The notes under the pieces: generated by a model
The model's input: the letters and a program-made list of their open reading frames with translations, nothing else
What the model was told of the DNA's origin: nothing
Databases searched by the model: none
Origin: an uncultured Chloroflexia bacterium
GTDB lineage: Bacteria > Chloroflexota > Limnocylindria > Limnocylindrales > CSP1-4
NCBI GenBank assembly: GCA_963763775.1
Contig: CAVXPZ010000002.1
Coordinates: forward strand, 32,001-96,000
Length of the DNA: 64,000 bases
Direction of reading: 5' to 3'
Part shown: positions 26,460 through 44,330 of the stretch, one piece after another
Position numbering within the stretch: position 1 is the stretch's first letter
Layout: every line of letters starts with the position of its first letter
Position numbers and translations under genes: made by a program

Positions 26460-28977
26460 CGATGACGAGCGCGGCGTCCATGGCCGCGTCCAGGGCTGGG
26501 TCCAGGGCCGGTTCGAGGGCCGGTTCGAGACTCTGCGTGTCGTGGTGCAGGTGCGTGACCATGCGCTCCTTGGCGTACTGCAGCAGCCACGTCGGCGCGA
26601 GGATCGACCCCGCGGCGAAGACGAGACCCGAAGGACGCAGCACGACGCCCGGACTCCATTTCGCGGCCCGGATGACGTCCGAGAGGGCCCCCCTGCGGCC
26701 CTTGCCCTGCGGAAGCACACGATGCTGCGCGGCCCGCTGGAGGTGCGACCGGCCGATCGCGTTGATCAGGCGGCGGCGCTCGCGCGATGAGAGGCCACGC
26801 ACTTCGTCATGGGCGTGCAGGGCATTCTGGTAGGCCAACCCGACGACCGTGTCGCCGACGCCGCTCGCTCGATTGAACTGCAGCCGCTGCGGGCCGTCGG
26901 AGTCGTCGCGGACGGTGTAGTCGAGAAGCTCGTCCATGAGGTACGCGACGTGCCCATACGCGCCGACGCGCATCGTCGATTCGAAGTCGGCCGACAGCCC
27001 GACCTCGGGCCGGAAGAGCCCGCCGGACTCGGCGACCACGCGACGGCTGACGACGACCGAACCCACCTGCCACGGTGGCTGACCGTCGCCGGTGCAGAGT
27101 TCGAGCCACTCGCTCGGTGAGTAGACGCCGTCGCGGACCGGGAACTTGGCCTTCGTTCCGTACCAGACGCGATCGGCCGATCCGCCGTCGGGGTAGACCC
27201 GTCGGCAGGACGAGAGCGCCATGGCGAGCCTCGGGACCTGCGGCTCGAACCACTCGATCGCGGCGGCCAGCCGTTGGAGGCAGTCGGGTCGGATCCGGTC
27301 GTCGGCGGCGAGCGACTGGATCCAGTCGCTCTCGCACAGTCCCGCCGTCCGGTTCCAGCTCTCCAGGATCGACACCCCGTGGTCGAAGCGGTGGTACCGG
27401 ATCCGCGGGTCGTCATAGCGCCCGACCACCGACGCGATGTCCTCCGTGGACGCGTTGTCGCCGATGACGAGCTCCCAGTGCTGGTAGGTCTGCTGGAGCA
27501 CGCTCTCGATGGCCCGCGGCAGCCACTTGGAGTCATTCCGCACCGGGATGAAGACCGAGATCGCGACCGAGGGCGACGGGATGTCCGCGATGATCCGGTC
27601 GCTCAGCGGGACGACCCGCTCGAGCGTCGCCGGGAGCGTGACCGGTCCGACGGGGACGGTCAGGGCGTCCACGGTCGCGCGGGTCATGTACCGGTCTGGG
27701 TCCGACGTCGTCGCCGCGCCGAACACCTCGCGGACCATGAGCAGCGCGGTCACGCACAGCCCGATGAACCAGCCGATGGCCAGCCCGGTCACCTCGTCGC
27801 GGACGGCACCGGCCCACGCCAGGGCGATCTGGAGGATCGCGCCGAACACGAGGATCGCGACGGTGCCACGCATCTCGTGACGGATCCGGCGCAAGGCGAT
27901 CCAGTGGTCGATCACGATCAACGGGATCGCGCAGGCGGCCAGCCAGGGGAGGCTGGCGCCGGCCAGCTCGACGTACGTCGGCCCGAAGAGGCCGAGCAGC
28001 CACGGGCCAAGGACCCAGAGGACCGCGATCCCGACAGCCACGATGGCACTCGACAGCGCGAGGGTGACCCGCAACTGGTGCTGGAACGCCCGTGGGGACC
28101 GCTCGCCGACGGCATAGAGCGTGAAGGTCGCCGACGATGCGATGACCTGGAGCGCCGTCGTGAGGATCAGCGCGACATAGAAGGCGGCGTTGGCCGTCGC
28201 CGACAGCACGCCCGTGACCAGGACCGGCATGAACAGCGCAGGGCCGGTGCGAGCCGCGCTGATCGCGTGGTGGCCGGCCGCGCTCCTCGCCAGCCGGGAG
28301 ACGGCGCGCCACTCGAAGGCGACGGTGATCCGCTCGTCCGATCGGCGAGTGGCCAGGATGGCGACGTACGAGAAGGCATCGCCCAGGGCCCACACACCGA
28401 AGATGACGAGGGCGCTCGACCCGCCGAAGACCAGGGCCGCCACGAGGAGGAAGACCAGCTTTCCGCCGGCGAAGGCCACGTTCCGGAAGAGCTGGAGTTC
28501 GCCCAGGCGCATCCCGAGCAGGATCTGGTCCATCACCACGCTGGCGGCCGCCAGGCCCACGCCGATGGCGAAGAGCGCGACGAACGGGAGGCTCGCGACC
28601 AGGGGGCGGTACTCATTGGAGAAGAACGGCGCGATGACCGAGAACAGCAGCCCGAGCACCGCACCGATGGCCACGGCGATCAGGATGGCTGTCGCGATGA
28701 GCTGCGCCCGTCGCCCGGCATAGCTCGGGACGAAGCCGGCCAGCGCGGTACCGAGTCCGCTCACGGTCAACCGCGCGATCAGGACGCTCGCCGAGATCGT
28801 GGCGCTGGCCAACCCGACCGCCTCGGGCGTGAACGTCCGGCTCGCCGCCCACCAGAAGACGAAGCCGAGCATCGAGTTGACGGTCCAGGCGGCGACCATC
28901 ATGCCGGTGGTCGCGATGATCACGCGCGATCGGCCGAAGAGGCCGAGGGCCTGTTCGATCGAGGTCAGGAAAGTCAC
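26449..28977 (-). CDS. Wzx/MATE-like polysaccharide flippase fused to a GT2 domain
   Basis: About 12 TM helices (LGFVFWWAASR...VGLASA) in the first ~420 aa, then SVFIPVRN, IGDNAST, LAADD, SADFE GT2 motifs in one frame. Confidence 0.85.
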   Translation of the reverse strand: MTFLTSIEQALGLFGRSRVIIATTGMMVAAWTVNSMLGFVFWWAASRTFTPEAVGLASATISASVLIARLTVSGLGTALAGFVPSYAGRRAQLIATAILIAVAIGAVLGLLFSVIAPFFSNEYRPLVASLPFVALFAIGVGLAAASVVMDQILLGMRLGELQLFRNVAFAGGKLVFLLVAALVFGGSSALVIFGVWALGDAFSYVAILATRRSDERITVAFEWRAVSRLARSAAGHHAISAARTGPALFMPVLVTGVLSATANAAFYVALILTTALQVIASSATFTLYAVGERSPRAFQHQLRVTLALSSAIVAVGIAVLWVLGPWLLGLFGPTYVELAGASLPWLAACAIPLIVIDHWIALRRIRHEMRGTVAILVFGAILQIALAWAGAVRDEVTGLAIGWFIGLCVTALLMVREVFGAATTSDPDRYMTRATVDALTVPVGPVTLPATLERVVPLSDRIIADIPSPSVAISVFIPVRNDSKWLPRAIESVLQQTYQHWELVIGDNASTEDIASVVGRYDDPRIRYHRFDHGVSILESWNRTAGLCESDWIQSLAADDRIRPDCLQRLAAAIEWFEPQVPRLAMALSSCRRVYPDGGSADRVWYGTKAKFPVRDGVYSPSEWLELCTGDGQPPWQVGSVVVSRRVVAESGGLFRPEVGLSADFESTMRVGAYGHVAYLMDELLDYTVRDDSDGPQRLQFNRASGVGDTVVGLAYQNALHAHDEVRGLSSRERRRLINAIGRSHLQRAAQHRVLPQGKGRRGALSDVIRAAKWSPGVVLRPSGLVFAAGSILAPTWLLQYAKERMVTHLHHDTQSLEPALEPALDPALDAAMDAALVIDER
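26490..26530 (-). repeat. 12-bp tandem repeat encoding LEPA/LDPA
   Basis: TCCAGGGCTGGG-TCCAGGGCCGGT-TCGAGGGCCGGT-TCGAG on the + strand. Confidence 0.7.
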
Positions 28978-29220
28978 GGGTCGGTTCGGTCCATGGGTGT
29001 CGCGGGATGGTCCGGATGGATGGGTCGGATGATCGGCTGAGCATACCCGGCAATGCGCCGGGTGCCGTTGTCAGGGTGCAACGGAACTCGCTCCGCCGGA
29101 CCCCTGACCTTCTGGCCAGCGCCTCGTCCACGGTCCCGGACCATCCCGCCATCGACTTCCGGCGGACCGCCACGGATACTGCAGGCCGGTCCAGACGCGC
29201 CCCGGGGACGCTGGACACCC

Positions 29221-29295
29221 CACGAACGAGCACACCCGCTGCGAGGCGGGGCCGCAAAGCCACGGGACTCTCGGAGTCAGCCGGGTTGCCGAATG
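29221..29295 (+). ncRNA. GEMM-I (c-di-GMP-I family) riboswitch, A20 variant
   Basis: GCACA-CCCGCT-GCGA-GGCGGG-GCCGCAAAGCCACGGG-ACTC-TCG-GAGT-CAGCCGGGTTGCCGAA: P2 with a GNRA loop, the GCAAAGCC core and the P3 end, directly before SD GAGGTG. Confidence 0.85.
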
Positions 29296-29307
29296 AGGTG
29301 GATATCG

Positions 29308-31129
29308 ATGTATTGGGATGGAGAACGCTGGCTCGACGAGGAGCGCCCCACCCGCCGACGGAACCCGGGTACACAGCGAACCCGAACCCGCGATTGGATC
29401 GCGACAGGGATCATGGCGATCGCGCTTGTCGCCCTCGTGCTTCCCCTGGGGGCGACCTTTGCGGCGACCCGCCCAGCTGGGCGCCAGCTGTTGTCCGACT
29501 GGTCGGCACGCGCGAGGGTGCGCGTCTACCAAGAGAACAGTGACGCGATGACGTATCGCGGGCATTGGGTCAAGGCCATCTACCCCGGCTACCTGGGCCG
29601 GGGGGCACGGGCGTCCGATGTCGCCGGAGCGAAGGCGAGCCTGAAGTTCCGCGGTGCGGCCGTCTCCTGGATCGGGCCGGTCGGCCCGACGCGCGGGAAG
29701 GCGAAGGTCTACATCGACGGCGAGTATGTCGCCACGGTCGACACCCATGCCGCATCGTTCAAGCCCACGCGTGTCCTCTTCAAGACCTCCTTCAAGAAGG
29801 TCGGCGTGCACCGGATCACCGTGATCAACCAGGGAACAGCGGGCCATCCGACGGTCGCCGTCGATGCGTTCGCCATCCGTGGCGTCAACACGGCCGAGGC
29901 CGATCCGGTCCAGGGACCGCCCGCGCCGCCGGCGGACCCGACACCCGCCGACCCGACGCCGAAGCCGACGGCCGATCCGACTCCGACGCCGAAGCCGACC
30001 GCGGATCCGACCCCCACGCCGAAGCCGGCCGACACCCCGCCGCCCACGCCGACGCCGACACCGACACCGACACCCACGCCGGTGCCGACCCCGACACCCA
30101 CGCCGAAGCCGACGCCGACCCCGACGCCGCGCGTCGTCATCCTCGACCCGCCGGCTGCCACACCCACGCCCACACCCACGCCGACGCCGACGCCTGCTCC
30201 GACGCCGACGCCCGCTCCCACGCCGGCGCCCACGCCGAGCCCGGTGCCGACGCCGGCACCCACGCCAAGCCCCGTCCCGACACCGGCTCCCACACCGGTG
30301 CCGACACCCGTCCCGACTCCGGTCGCGACGCCCACGCCGACGCCGACGCCGAAGCCCACACCGACCCCGACACCGGTGCCGACGCCCGTTCCGACGCCGG
30401 TCCCCACCCCAGTCCCGACCCCGGGATCGGGCACCTCGATGCCGACGTCTGACCTCCCCGGCTGGAAGCTGGTCTTCAACGACGACTTCAACACGCCGGT
30501 CGCCCTCGGCAGCTTCCCGAGCGCCGTGTCCAGCAAGTGGGGCGCCTACCCATCCGGGTGGACCGACACGAGCAAGCACGGTGTCTACTCACCCGAGATC
30601 GTGAGCATCAACAACTCGATGATGGACGTGTGGGTCCACACCGAGAACGGGATCCACAAGGTCGCTGCACCCGACGCCGAAGGTGCCCGGCGGCGACCAG
30701 ACCTACGGCCGGTACGCGATCCGCTTCCGGGCGGACGCGGTCAAGGGCTACAAGGCGGCCTGGCTGCTCTGGCCGAAGTCCGGCACGTGGCCGCGCGACG
30801 GGGAGATCGACTTCCCGGAAGGCAACCTCGATCAGAAGATCTCGGCGTTCATGCATCGCCAGGGGGCGACCGCCGGTTCCGACCAGGATGCCTACAACAC
30901 GCAGTCGACCTTCACCTCATGGCACACCGCCGTCATCGAATGGGGGCCGGGACAGACCCGCTTCCTCCTCGACGGCACGGTGATCGGCACGTCGACCAGC
31001 CGGATCCCGAACACGGCGATGCACTGGGTCATCCAGACCGAGACGGCGCTGGACGGGACGACGCCGGCCGACAGCGCTCAGGGCCACGTCCAGATCGACT
31101 GGGTCGCGGTCTGGTCGTACGCCCCCTAG
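29308..31129 (+). CDS. Secreted/anchored protein: beta-sandwich (CBM-like) domain, long PT linker, GH16 glycoside hydrolase (frameshift near 30673)
   Basis: [10 protein letters not shown] helix, [13 protein letters not shown] jelly-roll domain, (PT)n, WKLVFNDDF, then [17 protein letters not shown] and catalytic [23 protein letters not shown] in the shifted frame. Confidence 0.85.
29930..30425 (+). repeat. About 500-bp Pro-Thr coding repeat region
   Basis: (PT)n, [10 protein letters not shown] x2 and PVPT units. Confidence 0.9.
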
Positions 31130-31217
31130 CCCATCTGGCGGGTTCGACCGCCACCCACGGACACCGATACCGCGACGGCCGGACCTCCTGGTCCGGCCGT
31201 CGTCCTTGTCGAGCCCG

Positions 31218-31239
31218 TCCCGCGTCGCCGCGCGGGACG
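31218..31239. terminator. Hairpin between convergent genes
   Basis: GTCCCGCG-tcgccg-CGCGGGAC. Confidence 0.5.
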
Positions 31240-31243
31240 TCGG

Positions 31244-32485
31244 TCAGCGAATCTCGGGCGACGGGATCGGCACGATGAAGCGGCCGCCTCGTCGGACGTA
31301 CTCGGCCTGCTGGCGGATGATCTCGTCGGCGAAGTTCCAGGCGAGGAGCAGGACGTAGTCGGGCTGCCGCTCGAGCAGCGCGCTCGGCGTCGACGATCGG
31401 CAGTCGGGCGCCGGGCGTCCAATGCCCCTGCTTGTGAGGATTCCGGTCGGCGACGAAGTCGATCGTGCGATGGTCGATCCCCGCGTAGTTCAGGAGCGTC
31501 GCGCCCTTCGCGGTGGCCCCGTAGGCCGCGACCGACCGGCCCTCGGCACGGAGGCCGCGCCAGGAGTCGCCGCAACGAGTCGGCGATCCCCTCGACGCGC
31601 GCGGCGAAGTCCGCGTACGCGCCCGATCGTCGTGAAGCCTCGCTCGCGCTCCTCGGCGAGATACGACCGGACGCGATCGGTCGGAGCCTCGACCGGGCTG
31701 ATCCACCAGCGCAGCGTGCCACCGTGCAACTTCGGGAAGTAGTCGACGTCGTTGAGGAACAGGCCGTGGCGTCGCATCAGGGCGTCGACCGCACTGCACG
31801 AGAAGTAGCACCAGTGCTCGTGATAGATGGTGTCGAACTCGGCGTGGTCGACGAGGTCGCGCACGTACGGGTTTTCGACGGTGATGACGCCGTCGTCGGC
31901 GATCAGCTCGCGGAACCCTTCGACGAACCCGTTGAGGTCGGGCACGTGGGCCATGACGTTGTTGGCCACGATGACGTCGGCCGGACCGTACTCGCGACGC
32001 AGGTCGGCCGCCATCCCGGTGCCGAAGAACGTCTGCAGTGTCGGGATCCCGAGATCCCGCGCGGCCGCCGCCGGGCCCGCCGTCGGCTCGATCCCCAGGA
32101 CGGGGACACCCCGTTCCATCGCGTGGCGCAGCAGATAGCCGTCGTTGCTCGCGACCTCGACGAGCAGCTTGCCCGGCCCGAGCCGGCCCGTCGCGATCAG
32201 CCCTTCGACGTGCTCGAGCGAGTGGGCCAGGAGGTCGTCGGAGTACGACGAGAAGTAGGGATACGCATCATCGAAGATCGCATCGGCCGGCAGCGCGTAC
32301 GTGAGCTGCACGAGCGTGCAGGTCTCGCAGAACCCGACGGCGAGCGGGAACCGCGGCTCCTCGCGCGCAAGGTCGTCCTCGCCGAGCAGGGCGTTCGCGA
32401 TCGGCGTGGCCCCCAGCGACAGGAACGGCCGCAGCTCGGGCGAGCCGCAGGAACGACAGGTCGCGACGCGAGCGCCCTCAGACAT
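31244..32485 (-). CDS. NDP-sugar C-methyltransferase (class I SAM, Zn-binding N-terminus); several frameshifts about 31385-31620
   Basis: [60 protein letters not shown], and C-terminal LLAWNF...GGRFIVPIP across frames. Confidence 0.88.
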
Positions 32486-37143: not shown

Positions 37144-38083
37144 GGCGCCCGTCAAGCTCGGGGCCCTGCTCTGGAGCCAGTACACCGGCTGGAACGAGCT
37201 CCTCGAGGCCGCGCAGCGCGCCGACCGACTCGGCTACGACACGTTGTGGACGTGGGACCACGTCATGCCGGTCGTCGGCGACCCGGACGGACCGATCTTC
37301 GAAGGATGGTCGACGCTCGCCGCCTGGGCCCACGCGACCGACCGCATCCGCCTCGGGCTCATGGTCGGCGCCAACACGTTCCGACCGCCGGGCCTGACGG
37401 CGAAACTGGTCACGACCCTGGACCATATCTCGAACGGCCGGGCGATCCTCGGGATCGGCTCAGCCTGGTTCGAACCCGAGCATCTCGCCTTCGGGATCCC
37501 GTTCGGGTCCGGGGCGCCGGAGCGTCTCCGATGGCTCGCCGAGGCCCTGCCGGTCATCCGGTCGATGCTCGATGGACGTCCGGCGACCTCATCCGGCCCC
37601 CGCTACGCGGTCCAGGGAGCCCGCAATGACCCCGTGCCGGTCCAGGCGCATCTCCCGATCCTCATCGGTGGGGGCGGGGTCGACGTGACCCTCAAGCTCG
37701 TCGCCCGGTACGGCGATGCGAACAACATCGGCGGGGGCGTGGAGAACGTGCGTCGGAAGGACGAGATCCTCGTCCGGCACTGCGAAGCCATCGGCCGGGA
37801 CCCGGCGGAGATCGAGCGCACGTCCGGCCTCGGCACCGTCGTCATCAGGGATTTGCGACGGGAGGCCGTCAAGGTCCAGCGCGAGATCTTCGAACGGCAA
37901 GGCCGCGCCGAGGTCTGGGCCGACCAGCCGGTCGGCACCCCCGAGGACGTCGCCGAGCGCATCCTCGCCTACATGGACATCGGGTATCGCCACCTGACCG
38001 CCGGGTTCCCTGGCCCGCACGACGAGGAGTCGATGGTCCGCCTCGCCGGTGAGGTCCGCGCGATGGTCGATCGAGCGGGCTAG
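37142..38083 (+). CDS. LLM-class (luciferase-like, possibly F420-dependent) oxidoreductase
   Basis: LWTWDH, EGWSTLAA, TLDHISNGRAILGIG, PILIGGGG. Confidence 0.88.
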   Translation: MAPVKLGALLWSQYTGWNELLEAAQRADRLGYDTLWTWDHVMPVVGDPDGPIFEGWSTLAAWAHATDRIRLGLMVGANTFRPPGLTAKLVTTLDHISNGRAILGIGSAWFEPEHLAFGIPFGSGAPERLRWLAEALPVIRSMLDGRPATSSGPRYAVQGARNDPVPVQAHLPILIGGGGVDVTLKLVARYGDANNIGGGVENVRRKDEILVRHCEAIGRDPAEIERTSGLGTVVIRDLRREAVKVQREIFERQGRAEVWADQPVGTPEDVAERILAYMDIGYRHLTAGFPGPHDEESMVRLAGEVRAMVDRAG

Positions 38084-41000
38084 CTACCGACCCCGGCGGT
38101 CCGATGGGCCGCCACCTGGGTGGCCGTCAGGACCTTCGCGTAGACCGCGACCTCGTCGAGGATCACGTTCCCGAACTTGGTGCCGTCGTTCCACCGGCCC
38201 ATCCACAGGTTGGTGGTCGACGTCGCGAGCGTCCGGTCGGTCACCGTGCCCGTCACGTCGGCGCCGTCCTTGTAGAGCTTCACGGCCGAACCGTTCTTGG
38301 TGAAGACCACGTGATGCCACGTCGTCGTGTCCGTGGTCGTCCCGGTCTCCGCCACGATGATCCCGCCGCCGTTCTTGCTCACGGTCAGCTTGTTCGTGGT
38401 GCCGGAGATGTCGATCTGGTAGGCGTTCGGCCCGTCGTCGAGGAGGGCCTGCATGCCGGTCGCCGTCTTGCGCTTGAACCAGAACTCGATCGAGAGCGGG
38501 CCGTTCCCGAGTGCCGGGACCGACGATCCCGGCACGCCGACATAGCCACTCGTCCCGTCGAGCGACACCGCGCCGTTGGCATCGCCGGTGATCGCCCCGG
38601 CGACACCGCGCGTCAGCGTCCCGCCATACCAGCCGGTCCGGGTCCCGACGGCGTCCGTGGCGATGATCCCGGTCGTGTCACCAAGACGCCAGTACGCGGA
38701 CGGGCCGTCGGCGATGACCGTGTCCTTGTACGAGGCGGTCGACCCGGACGACGCGTACGTGGCGGTGAACGTGGCAGCCGCCGCGGCGCTCACCTGGTGG
38801 CTGGCCGCGCCGGCGTCGGACCAGTTCGAGAACGTGTAGTTGGTCCCGGCAAGCGACTGCGGCGTCGGCGCGGTCACCGACACCACGCCGCCCTTGATCG
38901 CCGTGTGGTCGTAGGGGGTCGTATGCGACACGCCGGTCACGGTCACCGACAGCCCCGAGGGCACCGAGCGGAACGAGAGGACGACGGTCTTCGGGTCGAG
39001 ACGGAGGGTGGTCGACGCGGACACATTGGCCGAATTGGTCGCGGTCAGCGTGAGCTCGAGCCATGACGGGTAGTCGTGATCCGGCGCGGCGAACGACCCG
39101 GTCGCGACACCGGCGAACGTCTGGAGCTGGTGGGTGTGGCAATTGGATGGGCAGTGCTGGAGGACGAGCTGCCAGGACAACCTGGTCGCGGGCTCGGTGA
39201 CATCCTCGGTGTCGGTCGCGTGGCCGGTGAAGGAGATCTGGTCGCCGACCGCCCAGGTCGTCCCGGTCAGGGGCGTGTCGATGACGGGGACCGGCGGGTT
39301 GTTCGACGCGGTGCCCACGGAGATCTGGACGCTCGCGGTCGCGCTCGCACCACCGGTGTCCGTCACGCGCAGGCCGACCGTGACGATGCCGGCCGTCGTG
39401 TAGGTCCGGCTCGGGGTCGCGCTCGTCGAGTCGTTGTACTGGCCGTTGCCGTCGAGGTCCCACGCGTAGGTCAGGGCCGTGTTCTCCGGATCGGAGGACG
39501 TCGTGCCCGAGAAGGAGACCGCCAAGGGGGCCGTCCCGGATGTGGGGTTGGCGACGATCCGCGCCGTCGGCGGCTGATTGGTCGACGTGGACGTGATCCG
39601 GCGGATCGTCCCGCCGTCGAAGTCGACGTAGAAGATGTCGCCGCCCGGCCCGACCTCGAGCTTGACGGGATTGGCCGCCGGCGACGCGATCACGCGGATG
39701 TTCGCCGGGTCGGGCAGGCCGTTGGAGCCGGGCAGCATCGCCCAGATGCAGTCCCGGGAGTTGTCCGCGAAGAACAGGGCATTGCGGTACTCGGCCGGGT
39801 ACGACGTCCCGGTGTAGAACGCGATCCCCGCGATCGCCGAGCTCCCGACCGCGCACCCGTCGCCGTTGAGGACGCTCGACGCGTGGTTGTACGTGAAGTA
39901 CGGGGCCGTGACGGGGTTGGCGCTGTCGGCATAGAGGCTCGAGCAGATCGGTAGCGAGGCATAGCCCGGCTGCTGGCCGACCCCCTCGTAGCACGGCCAT
40001 CCGAAGTTGCGCAGCGAGGTGGTCGACGTGATCCGGTCGATCTCCTCCCAGTCGCTCCATCCGACGTCGCCGACCCAGATCTCGCTGGTGCCCGGACGGA
40101 ACGTGTATCGGAACGGGTTGCGCATGCCGTAAGCGATGATCCGGCGAGCATTCGCGTCGGTCGACGAGGCAAGGGGGTTCGTCGGCATCCCCGCGCCCGT
40201 GGCCGGGTCGATCCGGATGATCGAACCGTTCAACGCCACCGGGTCCGACGCGCCGCCGCCACTCCCGCCGGCGAGGCCGGCCTGGTAATGGGCGAGGGCC
40301 TTCGCGCCCGACAGGGCGGTCCCGTAGATCGCCACGTCGTCGAGCACGACGTTCGCGAAGGCCGTGCCGTCGTTCCACCGCCCCAGCCACAGGTTCGTCG
40401 TCGAGTTGGTGAGGGTGGCGTCGGTGCCCGGCGCGGTGACGTCCACGCCGTCTCGATAGATCTTGGTGGTGGCCCCGCTCTTGGTGATGACGAAGTGGTG
40501 GAACGTCGTGGTATCCGTCGTCGCCGTGGACTCCTTGGCCAGGATGGCACCGCCGTTCTTCGCCACGGTGAGCTTGCCGTCAGAGCCGGAGAAGGTGATC
40601 TGGTACGAGCCTGGCCCCCGATCAAGGATCGCCTGGTTGCCCGTCGTGCTCTTGCGCTTCACCCAGAACTCGACGCTGAACGGGCCGTTGGCGAGGTCGA
40701 GCGGGGTGTAGTCGGGCACGCCGACATAGCCCGACGTTCCGTCGAGCGACACCGCGCCGTCCGTGTCACCGACGATCGCGCCGGCGACGCCGCGCGTCGA
40801 GGTGCCGCCGTACCAGCCGGTCTGGGTCCCGATCTGGTCGTTGACGAGGATGCCCGTCGGCTCGCCGAGCCGCCAGTACACGAGCGGCGCGTCGGCCAGC
40901 ACCGTCGACCGGTAGCTCAGCCCCGAGCCGCCGCTGGACGGCATGGTGCGCAGGTCCTGCGCGCGAAGGGCGCCGCCCTCATTGTTGGGGTCACCGCACG

Positions 41001-41757
41001 GGTTCTTCGGGGTCTGGCTGCCGCTGCTGCCCCCGAACTGCCCCCAGTCCGCGTTCGTGAAGCTCGCCCCGTCACCGCCGGAGACGTACAGCGCACCGTC
41101 GCTGCCGAACTGCATATCGCCGATGGAGTGGCTCGGGAACTGCTGGCACCAGTCGTTGATCAGCACGGTCTCCGAGCCGGTCATCACGTTGCCGGCGGCC
41201 TGGAGCCGCGAGACGCGGCTGCTGACCACGCAGCCGTCGGTGTTCGGTCCCGGCGGGTTCGGGCAGGCGTCGTTCCAGACGGGGGCCGTGCCGTTGATCG
41301 GCGCGTCGTAGGTATAGGCGACGTAGACGTACGGATCGGTCGGGAAATTCGGGGCGAGCACCATCCCGAGGAGCCCGCGGTCCCAGTAGTCATCGACCTT
41401 CGTCCGCAGATCCGCGAAGACGGTCGAGGTGGTCGCGGAGAGCGAGGCGAAGACCTTGATGAGCCCGCTCTTCTCGGCCACGAACACGCGTCCGTCGGAG
41501 GCGAACCGGACGTTGGTCGGGAAGGTGAGCCCGGAGATCGTGGTCGTCTCCGCCAGGCCGGTCGCGATGGACTGGGTCGAGAACGACCCGACCGTCGCGC
41601 GATGGGTGCCCACGGCCGCCCCGGCGTCCTCGCCCAGGAACGGGCGCGCGCTCGGGTCCGCCGCCGCGGCCGGCGAGACCGGCCCGACCGCGACCCCAAG
41701 CAGGGCCATCAGGACGACGGCCGTGGTGGCCGACCGTCCCATCCGTAGACGCCGCAC
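38080..41757 (-). CDS. Large secreted protein: PQQ-dependent sugar dehydrogenase-like propeller with an inserted LamG domain, PKD and Ig-like domains, second LamG domain
   Basis: Signal peptide; FVAEKSG, DRGLLG, SHSIGD..FGSDGALY, YGMRNPFR, DVGWSDWEEI, NFGWPCYEG; two YWRLG...DDVAIY LamG domains; YAWDLDGNG PKD motif. Confidence 0.88.
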   Translation of the reverse strand: MRRLRMGRSATTAVVLMALLGVAVGPVSPAAAADPSARPFLGEDAGAAVGTHRATVGSFSTQSIATGLAETTTISGLTFPTNVRFASDGRVFVAEKSGLIKVFASLSATTSTVFADLRTKVDDYWDRGLLGMVLAPNFPTDPYVYVAYTYDAPINGTAPVWNDACPNPPGPNTDGCVVSSRVSRLQAAGNVMTGSETVLINDWCQQFPSHSIGDMQFGSDGALYVSGGDGASFTNADWGQFGGSSGSQTPKNPCGDPNNEGGALRAQDLRTMPSSGGSGLSYRSTVLADAPLVYWRLGEPTGILVNDQIGTQTGWYGGTSTRGVAGAIVGDTDGAVSLDGTSGYVGVPDYTPLDLANGPFSVEFWVKRKSTTGNQAILDRGPGSYQITFSGSDGKLTVAKNGGAILAKESTATTDTTTFHHFVITKSGATTKIYRDGVDVTAPGTDATLTNSTTNLWLGRWNDGTAFANVVLDDVAIYGTALSGAKALAHYQAGLAGGSGGGASDPVALNGSIIRIDPATGAGMPTNPLASSTDANARRIIAYGMRNPFRYTFRPGTSEIWVGDVGWSDWEEIDRITSTTSLRNFGWPCYEGVGQQPGYASLPICSSLYADSANPVTAPYFTYNHASSVLNGDGCAVGSSAIAGIAFYTGTSYPAEYRNALFFADNSRDCIWAMLPGSNGLPDPANIRVIASPAANPVKLEVGPGGDIFYVDFDGGTIRRITSTSTNQPPTARIVANPTSGTAPLAVSFSGTTSSDPENTALTYAWDLDGNGQYNDSTSATPSRTYTTAGIVTVGLRVTDTGGASATASVQISVGTASNNPPVPVIDTPLTGTTWAVGDQISFTGHATDTEDVTEPATRLSWQLVLQHCPSNCHTHQLQTFAGVATGSFAAPDHDYPSWLELTLTATNSANVSASTTLRLDPKTVVLSFRSVPSGLSVTVTGVSHTTPYDHTAIKGGVVSVTAPTPQSLAGTNYTFSNWSDAGAASHQVSAAAAATFTATYASSGSTASYKDTVIADGPSAYWRLGDTTGIIATDAVGTRTGWYGGTLTRGVAGAITGDANGAVSLDGTSGYVGVPGSSVPALGNGPLSIEFWFKRKTATGMQALLDDGPNAYQIDISGTTNKLTVSKNGGGIIVAETGTTTDTTTWHHVVFTKNGSAVKLYKDGADVTGTVTDRTLATSTTNLWMGRWNDGTKFGNVILDEVAVYAKVLTATQVAAHRTAGVGS

Positions 41758-41883
41758 GTGACCCTCCCCCGGCACCCTTCGACCCACGCATCCGCGGCGG
41801 AAGACGACCCGTTGGTGCTCGGGTCGCGAACCGACCCGGACCGCCGGTTTCCTGGGGATCCGCGCGCTGTGTGGTTGAGGTGG

Positions 41884-43534: not shown

Positions 43535-44125
43535 TTACGGGTTGTTGGCGGTCTGCTCGGCGTCGAACGTGAACGTCACGGCCGACGTGAGGCCCTGGAG
43601 CGTGTTCCCGCTGGTGAGCGGGAGGCTCACCCGGAAGCAGAGGACCTCGTTGCTCGCCGCCGCCAGCGTCCGGTCGCCGGCCTGGGCGCCCTGGGTGTTG
43701 CTGCCGATCGCGGCGCCGCTGAGCGCCGTGGCCGCCAGGACGGTCGTGCCGTCGAACGCGGCGCAACTGGTGCCCTGCGTCTTCACGGTCAGCTGGAGGG
43801 CCGCGCCGAGCGCGGTGGTCGCGGTCGTCGACATCGCGTAGCGGAGCGGCGCGGTGCCGGCGTTGGCGATCGTCATCGTGGCCGTGTTCGCGTCGCCGGG
43901 CATCATCGCCGCGACGTTGAACGCGACGGCCGGGCTCGATGTGATGTCGATGGTCCCGCTGGCGAACGACCCCGTCGACGCGGCGGTGTCGGTGAAGATC
44001 GCCAGGGAGAAAGCCCCGGCGCCCAGCCCGACCACGGTCAGGCCAAGCAGGGCAGCGAGGATCGGGCGGCGGTGGATGCGACGTTGCGCGCTCGGCATCC
44101 GGGTGAGGAGGTTGGACTCCTGCAC
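43535..44125 (-). CDS. TasA/CalY family SipW-processed fibre protein
   Basis: GAGAFSLAIFTD cleavage motif, FASGTIDI, MMPGD, NAGT..LRY, LCFRVSLP, GNTLQG, FTFDAEQ. Confidence 0.85.
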   Translation of the reverse strand: MQESNLLTRMPSAQRRIHRRPILAALLGLTVVGLGAGAFSLAIFTDTAASTGSFASGTIDITSSPAVAFNVAAMMPGDANTATMTIANAGTAPLRYAMSTTATTALGAALQLTVKTQGTSCAAFDGTTVLAATALSGAAIGSNTQGAQAGDRTLAAASNEVLCFRVSLPLTSGNTLQGLTSAVTFTFDAEQTANNP

Positions 44126-44330
44126 GGGGTGAACCCCTTTCGCTATGCAGCGGCCGGGCATGGCCGCGTTGTCCCCCCGGATCCCACAGGCGTGGAGACC
44201 CCGACGCTCTGTGCCTCCGGGATGGCATCGCGATCCGGTGAAGTGGCGTCTGGTGCATTCAAGCCGCCGCCGGTGCGTCGCCGCCACGGGACCGATGGGT
44301 CAGTGCGGGCGGTACCTTCGTCCGCCGCGC

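Follow-up and report, generated by a model that had tools for sequence, protein, structure and literature searches.

The window, by which is meant the whole 64 kb stretch of DNA analysed here, contains a c-di-GMP-I (GEMM-I) riboswitch bearing adenine rather than guanine at position 20 (Vc2 numbering), and there is good reason to think that this switch senses c-di-GMP and acts, by a predicted translational OFF mechanism, on the gene for a likely exported GH16 glucanase. A cmscan search identified RF01051 (c-di-GMP-I) as the sole Rfam match at gathering score in the window. It lies at 29219–29293 on the forward strand, as do all features of the switch and its gene described below, and covers the entire model (positions 1–87) with 56.4 bits against a gathering score of 35 (E = 2.4e-08), which bears out the full GEMM-I fold of the original prediction. 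In the RF01051 structural alignment, which had been proposed as a check, A29229 stands under the G20 of the model, immediately 5′ of the P2-closing G21-C22, and C29289 is the equivalent of C92; position 20 is A, not G, as had been read by eye. Lacking the G20 of canonical c-di-GMP-selective aptamers, the window aptamer is an A20 variant of the c-di-GMP-I class, and it combines A20 with C92 as does GEMM-Ib. C92 pairs with the second guanine of the ligand (PMC6140456), and C29289 is predicted to do likewise.

The upper stem of P2, with a GNRA-type loop, spans 29235–29250 in the RF01051 alignment, in the fold and by covariation among leaders. Its closing pairs, 29230-29255 (G-C) and 29231-29254 (C-G), are of the Vc2 type and are paired in 99.5% and 100% of cells, respectively, while the P1/P2/P3 three-way junction with A47 and C92 comprises 27 pairs, with 94.5% of cells paired across 33 leaders. 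P2, the junction core, the Shine-Dalgarno sequence (29295–29300) and the start codon (ATG 29308) all lie where they had first been placed. Five sets of DNA contigs, of small share each, were searched for read support of A29229. One contig, from run X4 (record 25), shows no differences from the window over 29025–29259, A29229 included, at a depth of 2 and with only 30 letters 3′ of 29229, one below the bridging rule; the run is possibly the source sample. Since this contig is identical and 48 of 301 related genomes also carry A20, at 53 sites between them, a read error at A29229 is unlikely.

The riboswitch class, its A20 variants and the dual binding of such variants are already known. Vc2 carrying the G20A change binds c-di-GMP at 53 nM and cGAMP at 120 nM (PMC6140456, Keller 2018), and for Cbe 1-2, a naturally A20 aptamer, the values are 30 nM and 463 nM, respectively (PMC6140456). 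Both share A20 and C92 with the window aptamer, and neither binds cGAMP more tightly than c-di-GMP, the latter being bound through a protonated adenine (PMC6140456). In Cd1, replacing the equivalent base with A or C made no great difference (PMC9262584), and A20G changes the ligand of Gmet_0970 from cGAMP to c-di-GMP (PMC6456294). Because published A20 aptamers also bind c-di-GMP, A20 permits the binding of cGAMP without showing selectivity for it. By analogy, the purified window aptamer would probably also bind cGAMP, and the promiscuous sensor that had been offered as a fallback finds support in vitro to this extent. In the organism, c-di-GMP would bind via protonated A20, probably more weakly than it would with G20, and A20 would on this inferred scheme raise the c-di-GMP threshold, as a threshold tuner. 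The genome also holds one DAC gene, but C92 pairs with a guanine, and c-di-AMP was rejected as the ligand.

Comparison with characterised switches places the window aptamer close to Vc2, with which it shares the full model match, the closing pairs G21-C46 and C22-G45, A47 and C92. It differs from Vc2 in A20 for G20, in a J1/2 one base shorter, in C at position 24 opposite C or U, and in a P1 that runs straight into the Shine-Dalgarno sequence. The Geobacter GEMM-Ib switches (Gs1761, Gm0970 and pilM) likewise have A at position 20 and C92, but in Gs1761 the adenine is followed by a C-G pair (C15-G40) and J1/2 has six bases (PMC6274999), whereas the window aptamer has G-C and five bases; it therefore lacks the pocket context of Gs1761, which is perhaps not general to GEMM-Ib. 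Two related aptamers (L085 and L086), in which position 21 is C and A47 is preceded by G-G, have a pocket nearer to that of Gs1761 and yet carry G20. The pilM switch is a transcriptional ON switch (PMC9262584), whereas that in the window is a predicted translational OFF switch; and Geobacter possesses the synthase GacA, whereas the genome of the window shows no synthase signature.

The distribution of position 20 among relatives was established with Infernal, which found 75 aptamers in 32 of 61 genomes searched. Those with an A-A-A loop (53 sites) have G at 52 and C at one, with A at none, and a further count of this loop type gave A at one of 11 sites. Twenty sites are of the window's type (C24 and short J1/2), with 10 A, 8 G and 2 C, and 19 of them lie ahead of proteins that begin in one of two recurring ways; the remaining two aptamers are of other types. 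Within the window's own genus (131 genomes), 73 sites of the window's type comprise 32 A, 37 G and 4 C, and across the order (301 genomes) A occupies 53 sites, spread over 48 genomes and 13 genera, and 57 non-A genomes have G at 59 sites, C at 6 and U at none, an unpublished genome (G325) supplying 2 of the 59 G sites; these site counts, like the cross-tables given below, were counted by eye from tables. Adenine stands at 45% of window-type sites despite the 71% GC of the genome, compared with none of 53 and one of 11 in the A-A-A loop subfamily, which argues that A20 in the window's subfamily is not plain drift and that something favours it, a point that tells against the c-di-GMP reading. 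In sister family f2 (G037–G060, genomes of about 1.1 Mb), GEMM-I was found in none of 24 genomes searched. One relative carries four GEMM-I aptamers within 14 kb (L075; G012 C8:107238-120577), three of them A20.

Fifteen of 17 close homologues of the regulated gene carry the aptamer, with 7 G, 7 A and 1 C at position 20, and both of those with a GH16 motif (L178 and L183) have G20. A tree was built from 15 genes, that of the window and 14 of the 15 aptamer-bearing homologues (all but L194). On it the window's gene falls together with L178 and L183, on a branch that has support of 93/98 but is not starred, and A requires four changes, no fewer than with shuffled labels (106 of 500 as low). From these comparisons the switch is a member of a Ca. 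Limnocylindrales-type Chloroflexota subfamily with A, G or C at position 20. Such a subfamily offers natural, near-isogenic A/G/C aptamers in which the effect of position 20 could be measured.

The genome of the window (3.3 Mb, 71% GC, 87% complete) has 21 GGDEF matches, of which three are degenerate and 18 have a readable N-x-x-x-G-H-x-x-G-X motif. The specificity position was set from the Asn339/Ser348/Asp374 spacing (PMC6456294), 17 of the 18 domains being re-read, and it is Asp in all 18, so that no Hypr-signature GGDEF occurs among the readable domains of this 87% complete assembly. The four readable HD-GYP motifs are of the canonical form R-P-Y-K/R, and none shows RxxQ/N, a cGAMP marker drawn from bioRxiv 10.1101/600031. 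A SMODS CD-NTase was not found in the assembly by a search whose control matched, and a cGAS model matched nowhere, nor did its control, so that this search carries no weight. With Asp in 18 GGDEF domains and with HD-GYP motifs of canonical form, the host is equipped for c-di-GMP turnover, whereas the genome search that had been proposed for a Hypr-type GGDEF or CD-NTase found neither; the main caveat is the missing 13%, in which a synthase could lie. One of the canonical GGDEF genes, C2:98015-98482 (-), lies on the same contig 2 kb past the right end of the window.

Cyclases with the Hypr signature do occur in the family. A stricter pattern, in which Asn-Asp was required, matched 10 times across 9 of 131 genomes but never within a GGDEF domain; it misses the GAF-GGDEF cyclase family, and a pattern of Ser/Thr348 with GGDE[F/Y] was used instead on the same 301 genomes. 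This matched in 10 genomes, with eight in-frame GGDEF domains, six with Thr (genus g4) and two with Ser (genus g18); Ser/Thr348 and GGDE[F/Y] are found together at L130–L135, L137, L138 and L174. Matches in G172 and G315 were rejected as out of frame. Four of the 131 genomes of the window's own genus match the pattern, one of them in frame (G081, Ser type, with a G20 switch), those in G070, G084 and G094 being out of frame and likewise rejected. The best match of the Hypr types in the genome of the window is C3:779146-779586 (-), a GAF-rich GGDEF protein with Asp at the specificity position and 50–53% identity over the domain, and on this ground it and the sister-genus enzymes are treated as orthologues. 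In g4, 31 of 41 genomes show the orthologous cyclase, as 15 Thr, 1 Ser and 15 Asp forms. Ser forms were seen in g18, G385 and G081, Thr in g4, and Asp in the window genome and half of g4. In all six Thr types that were read, the cross-dimer position is occupied by Ala, which has been linked to mainly cGAMP production (PMC6456294). Like the Hypr GGDEF enzymes GacA and Bd0367, the orthologues of the sister genera combine Thr or Ser at position 348 with GGDEF; they differ from these in a GAF-rich N-terminus and in an activity that is putative, and the orthologue in the window genome has Asp. The Ser/Thr cyclases are thus candidate cGAMP synthases in Chloroflexota, and cGAMP signalling may operate elsewhere in the family through the Ser/Thr orthologue in sister genera. 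The signature is no proof of cGAMP synthesis, because D-to-S alone inactivated four of five canonical enzymes (PMC6456294).

Across relatives, by counts in which kin are not independent and genomes are incomplete, A20 does not follow the Hypr enzymes: a Hypr-signature cyclase is found in one of 48 A20 genomes (G215), the other 47 being without it, versus 2 of 57 non-A genomes. Where both states are known in g4, there are eight genomes with A20 and Asp, three with A20 and Thr, one with G20 and Asp, and one with C20 and Thr. Against this stands the genus level, at which g4 is richer in both traits, with A20 at 16 of 19 and Hypr types at 16 of 31, than the window's own genus, with A20 at 32 of 73 and a Hypr type in one of 131. 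The first part of the original proposal, that this lineage uses cGAMP at the window switch, is not supported, given a genome in which no Hypr GGDEF, RxxQ/N HD-GYP or SMODS was found, and it is further undercut by the alternation of A, G and C among orthologues without tracking Hypr enzymes, and by the G20 of the nearest GH16-bearing orthologues. It is very improbable that cGAMP is what the switch senses in this organism, supplied by a synthase that either lacks the Ser/Thr signature or falls outside the assembly. Such a reading could draw on A20 with C92, on the behaviour of Gmet_0970, on the completeness of just 87%, on the Hypr-signature enzymes in the family and on the G20 of the second GEMM-I aptamer in the genome, which makes two channels conceivable. 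Set against these are the genome's own orthologue of the Hypr-type enzyme, which has Asp, when S-to-D makes GacA c-di-GMP-only (PMC6456294); the 47 A20 genomes without the signature; the P2 closing pair, which is G-C and not the C15-G40 of Gs1761; and the G20 of the nearest orthologues.

A20 might instead be kept because the switch is a dual sensor, of c-di-GMP always and of cGAMP where the GAF-GGDEF cyclase is Hypr, the cGAMP input being unused here. The near restriction of A20 to one subfamily, in which it is common, the Ser/Thr signature in the same orthologous cyclase of three genera, and the richness of g4 in both A20 and Hypr types would fit such a role; it is made unlikely by the want of association inside g4 (A20 with Asp outnumbering A20 with Thr), by the G20 of the Ser-type genomes of g18, and by genera g9, g10 and g14, which are A20-rich without a Hypr match. 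It is a doubtful suggestion that the family has been caught evolving cGAMP signalling, through an orthologous cyclase that has become Thr or Ser and an A20 switch, placed on genes for exported proteins in 13 genera, that would serve as a ready-made dual receptor. If so, the window (A20 switch, Asp cyclase) would represent the state before, and G215, G392 and G404 the state after; and if the Thr/Ser cyclases of the sister genera make cGAMP, Hypr signalling would extend to Chloroflexota. The presence of A20 is not enough by itself to mark a riboswitch as one for cGAMP, since in this subfamily A interchanges with G and C before the same gene and mostly occurs without a synthase signature.

Sensing of c-di-GMP, the preferred reading, would be coupled to translation through P1. 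The 5′ strand of P1 with its anti-Shine-Dalgarno extension (29216–29224) was located from the fold and from covariation among leaders, and the Shine-Dalgarno sequence, which together with ATG 29308 lies immediately downstream of the aptamer, is predicted to be paired in the extended P1 when ligand is bound. In 33 leaders of the window's type, the stretch 5′ of P1 pairs with the Shine-Dalgarno region across a two-base bulge, the five extension pairs being 79.9% paired, compared with 28–49% in slid controls, a signal to be read with the caveat that the Shine-Dalgarno sequence is conserved for its own sake. Eleven extension cells are changed on both sides, a number reached in none of 500 shuffles; the slid controls were all exceeded save one, at slide +2 (11 against 10). 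At one extension pair, 14 rows have A-U and 9 have U-A, eight of the latter coming from g4 and so being kin, and 9 of the 33 rows break the pair; at another, 21 rows have U-A and two, including the window, have C-G. The number of covarying extension pairs is no higher than in shuffles (268 of 500). With P1 and P2 forced, ViennaRNA paired five of the six Shine-Dalgarno bases for all three 5′ ends tried; unconstrained, it left the Shine-Dalgarno sequence only partly open, to a degree varying with the 5′ end.

Because P1 reaches across the Shine-Dalgarno sequence and its pairing shows compensatory changes, the aptamer is predicted to be a translational OFF switch. The translational control that had been proposed is supported by the overlap, by pairing of the extension in the leaders and by the fold. 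Transcriptional attenuation was rejected, no terminator-like site (nor any sigma-70-like site) being found within 28900–31400. High c-di-GMP generally favours matrix building. Ligand would stabilise P1 and hide the Shine-Dalgarno sequence, stopping synthesis of the hydrolase at high c-di-GMP, and at low c-di-GMP the hydrolase would be made. Vc2 has been described as a translational OFF switch dependent on P1 stability (PMC9262584), and the window switch is predicted to work likewise; its subfamily offers a compact example of such a predicted switch.

The 5′ part of the regulated gene (29308–30671) was delineated from its ORF, Pfam and comparison with homologues, and encodes in turn a short W-D-G start motif, a hydrophobic segment, a domain of about 125 aa, a Pro/Thr-rich linker and the start of GH16. 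The hydrophobic segment (about 29395–29466) is likely an export signal or anchor. The domain of about 125 aa (about 29506–29883) drew no sequence match from Pfam, NCBIfam or PDB, and CE2_N in 19% of one atlas look-alike cluster is a lead only. The 3′ part (30672–31129), in the next frame, has the E-x-D-x-x-E catalytic motif intact at 30803–30820 and belongs to GH16 by Pfam PF00722 (E = 8.4e-12; 45.3 bits against a cut-off of 22); it resembles laminarinase/beta-1,3-glucanase structures (E = 1e-4 to 8e-4). By these features the product is likely an exported glucanase, both export and substrate being inferred. Most homologues of the downstream protein come from sequence records that bear Chloroflexota, Chloroflexia or Ca. 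Limnocylindrales in their titles.

The frameshift near 30671 that breaks the GH16 domain was absent from the original prediction. It was located by tblastn with the intact orthologue L183, which aligned as two pieces in two frames at 79–81% identity, and no contig of the five DNA sets covers it. The break is probably an assembly error, since other ordinary genes, such as an HD-GYP gene on C4 of the same assembly, and many ORFs of relatives also look frameshifted. These same frameshifts weigh against the idea that A20 is a neutral change ahead of a decaying pseudogene, which the break itself, its lack of read coverage and the frameshift in the orthologue L178 might seem to favour; all the aptamer pairs and the anti-Shine-Dalgarno helix are intact, compensatory pair included, as is the GH16 catalytic motif, and decay is very unlikely.

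The gene lies within a surface-polysaccharide cluster (18894–44299), which was assigned by Pfam and fits the description of an EPS island under which the GH16 gene had first been placed. The cluster includes a beta-helix protein, three GT2 enzymes, GT4, a C-methyltransferase, an epimerase, RmlC, a nucleotidyltransferase, PIG-L, a LamG/GSDH/PKD protein and a camelysin/TasA-family (M73) gene. The last two, a large protein at 38080–41787 (-) and a gene at 43538–44299 (-), stand at its edge. No report appeared among the literature listings of riboswitches in Limnocylindria/CSP1-4, of Hypr signalling in Chloroflexota or of a riboswitch-controlled glycoside hydrolase in Chloroflexota, and the supplements of the founding papers may bear on the novelty of each.

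Other GEMM-I aptamers in these genomes precede genes for small hydrophobic peptides; small proteins under riboswitch control in C. difficile are the subject of PMC13724677. The second GEMM-I of the window genome (L001; G000 C4:295898-296090) has G20 and overlaps the Shine-Dalgarno sequence of a gene for a conserved 35-aa hydrophobic peptide, a gene that occurs throughout the genus (L027–L039). A further G20 subtype (L058, L059, L060, L048, L142 and L152) precedes hydrophobic peptides of 28–30 aa with an aromatic-rich tail; switch and peptide are often repeated together, and a second short peptide sometimes follows.
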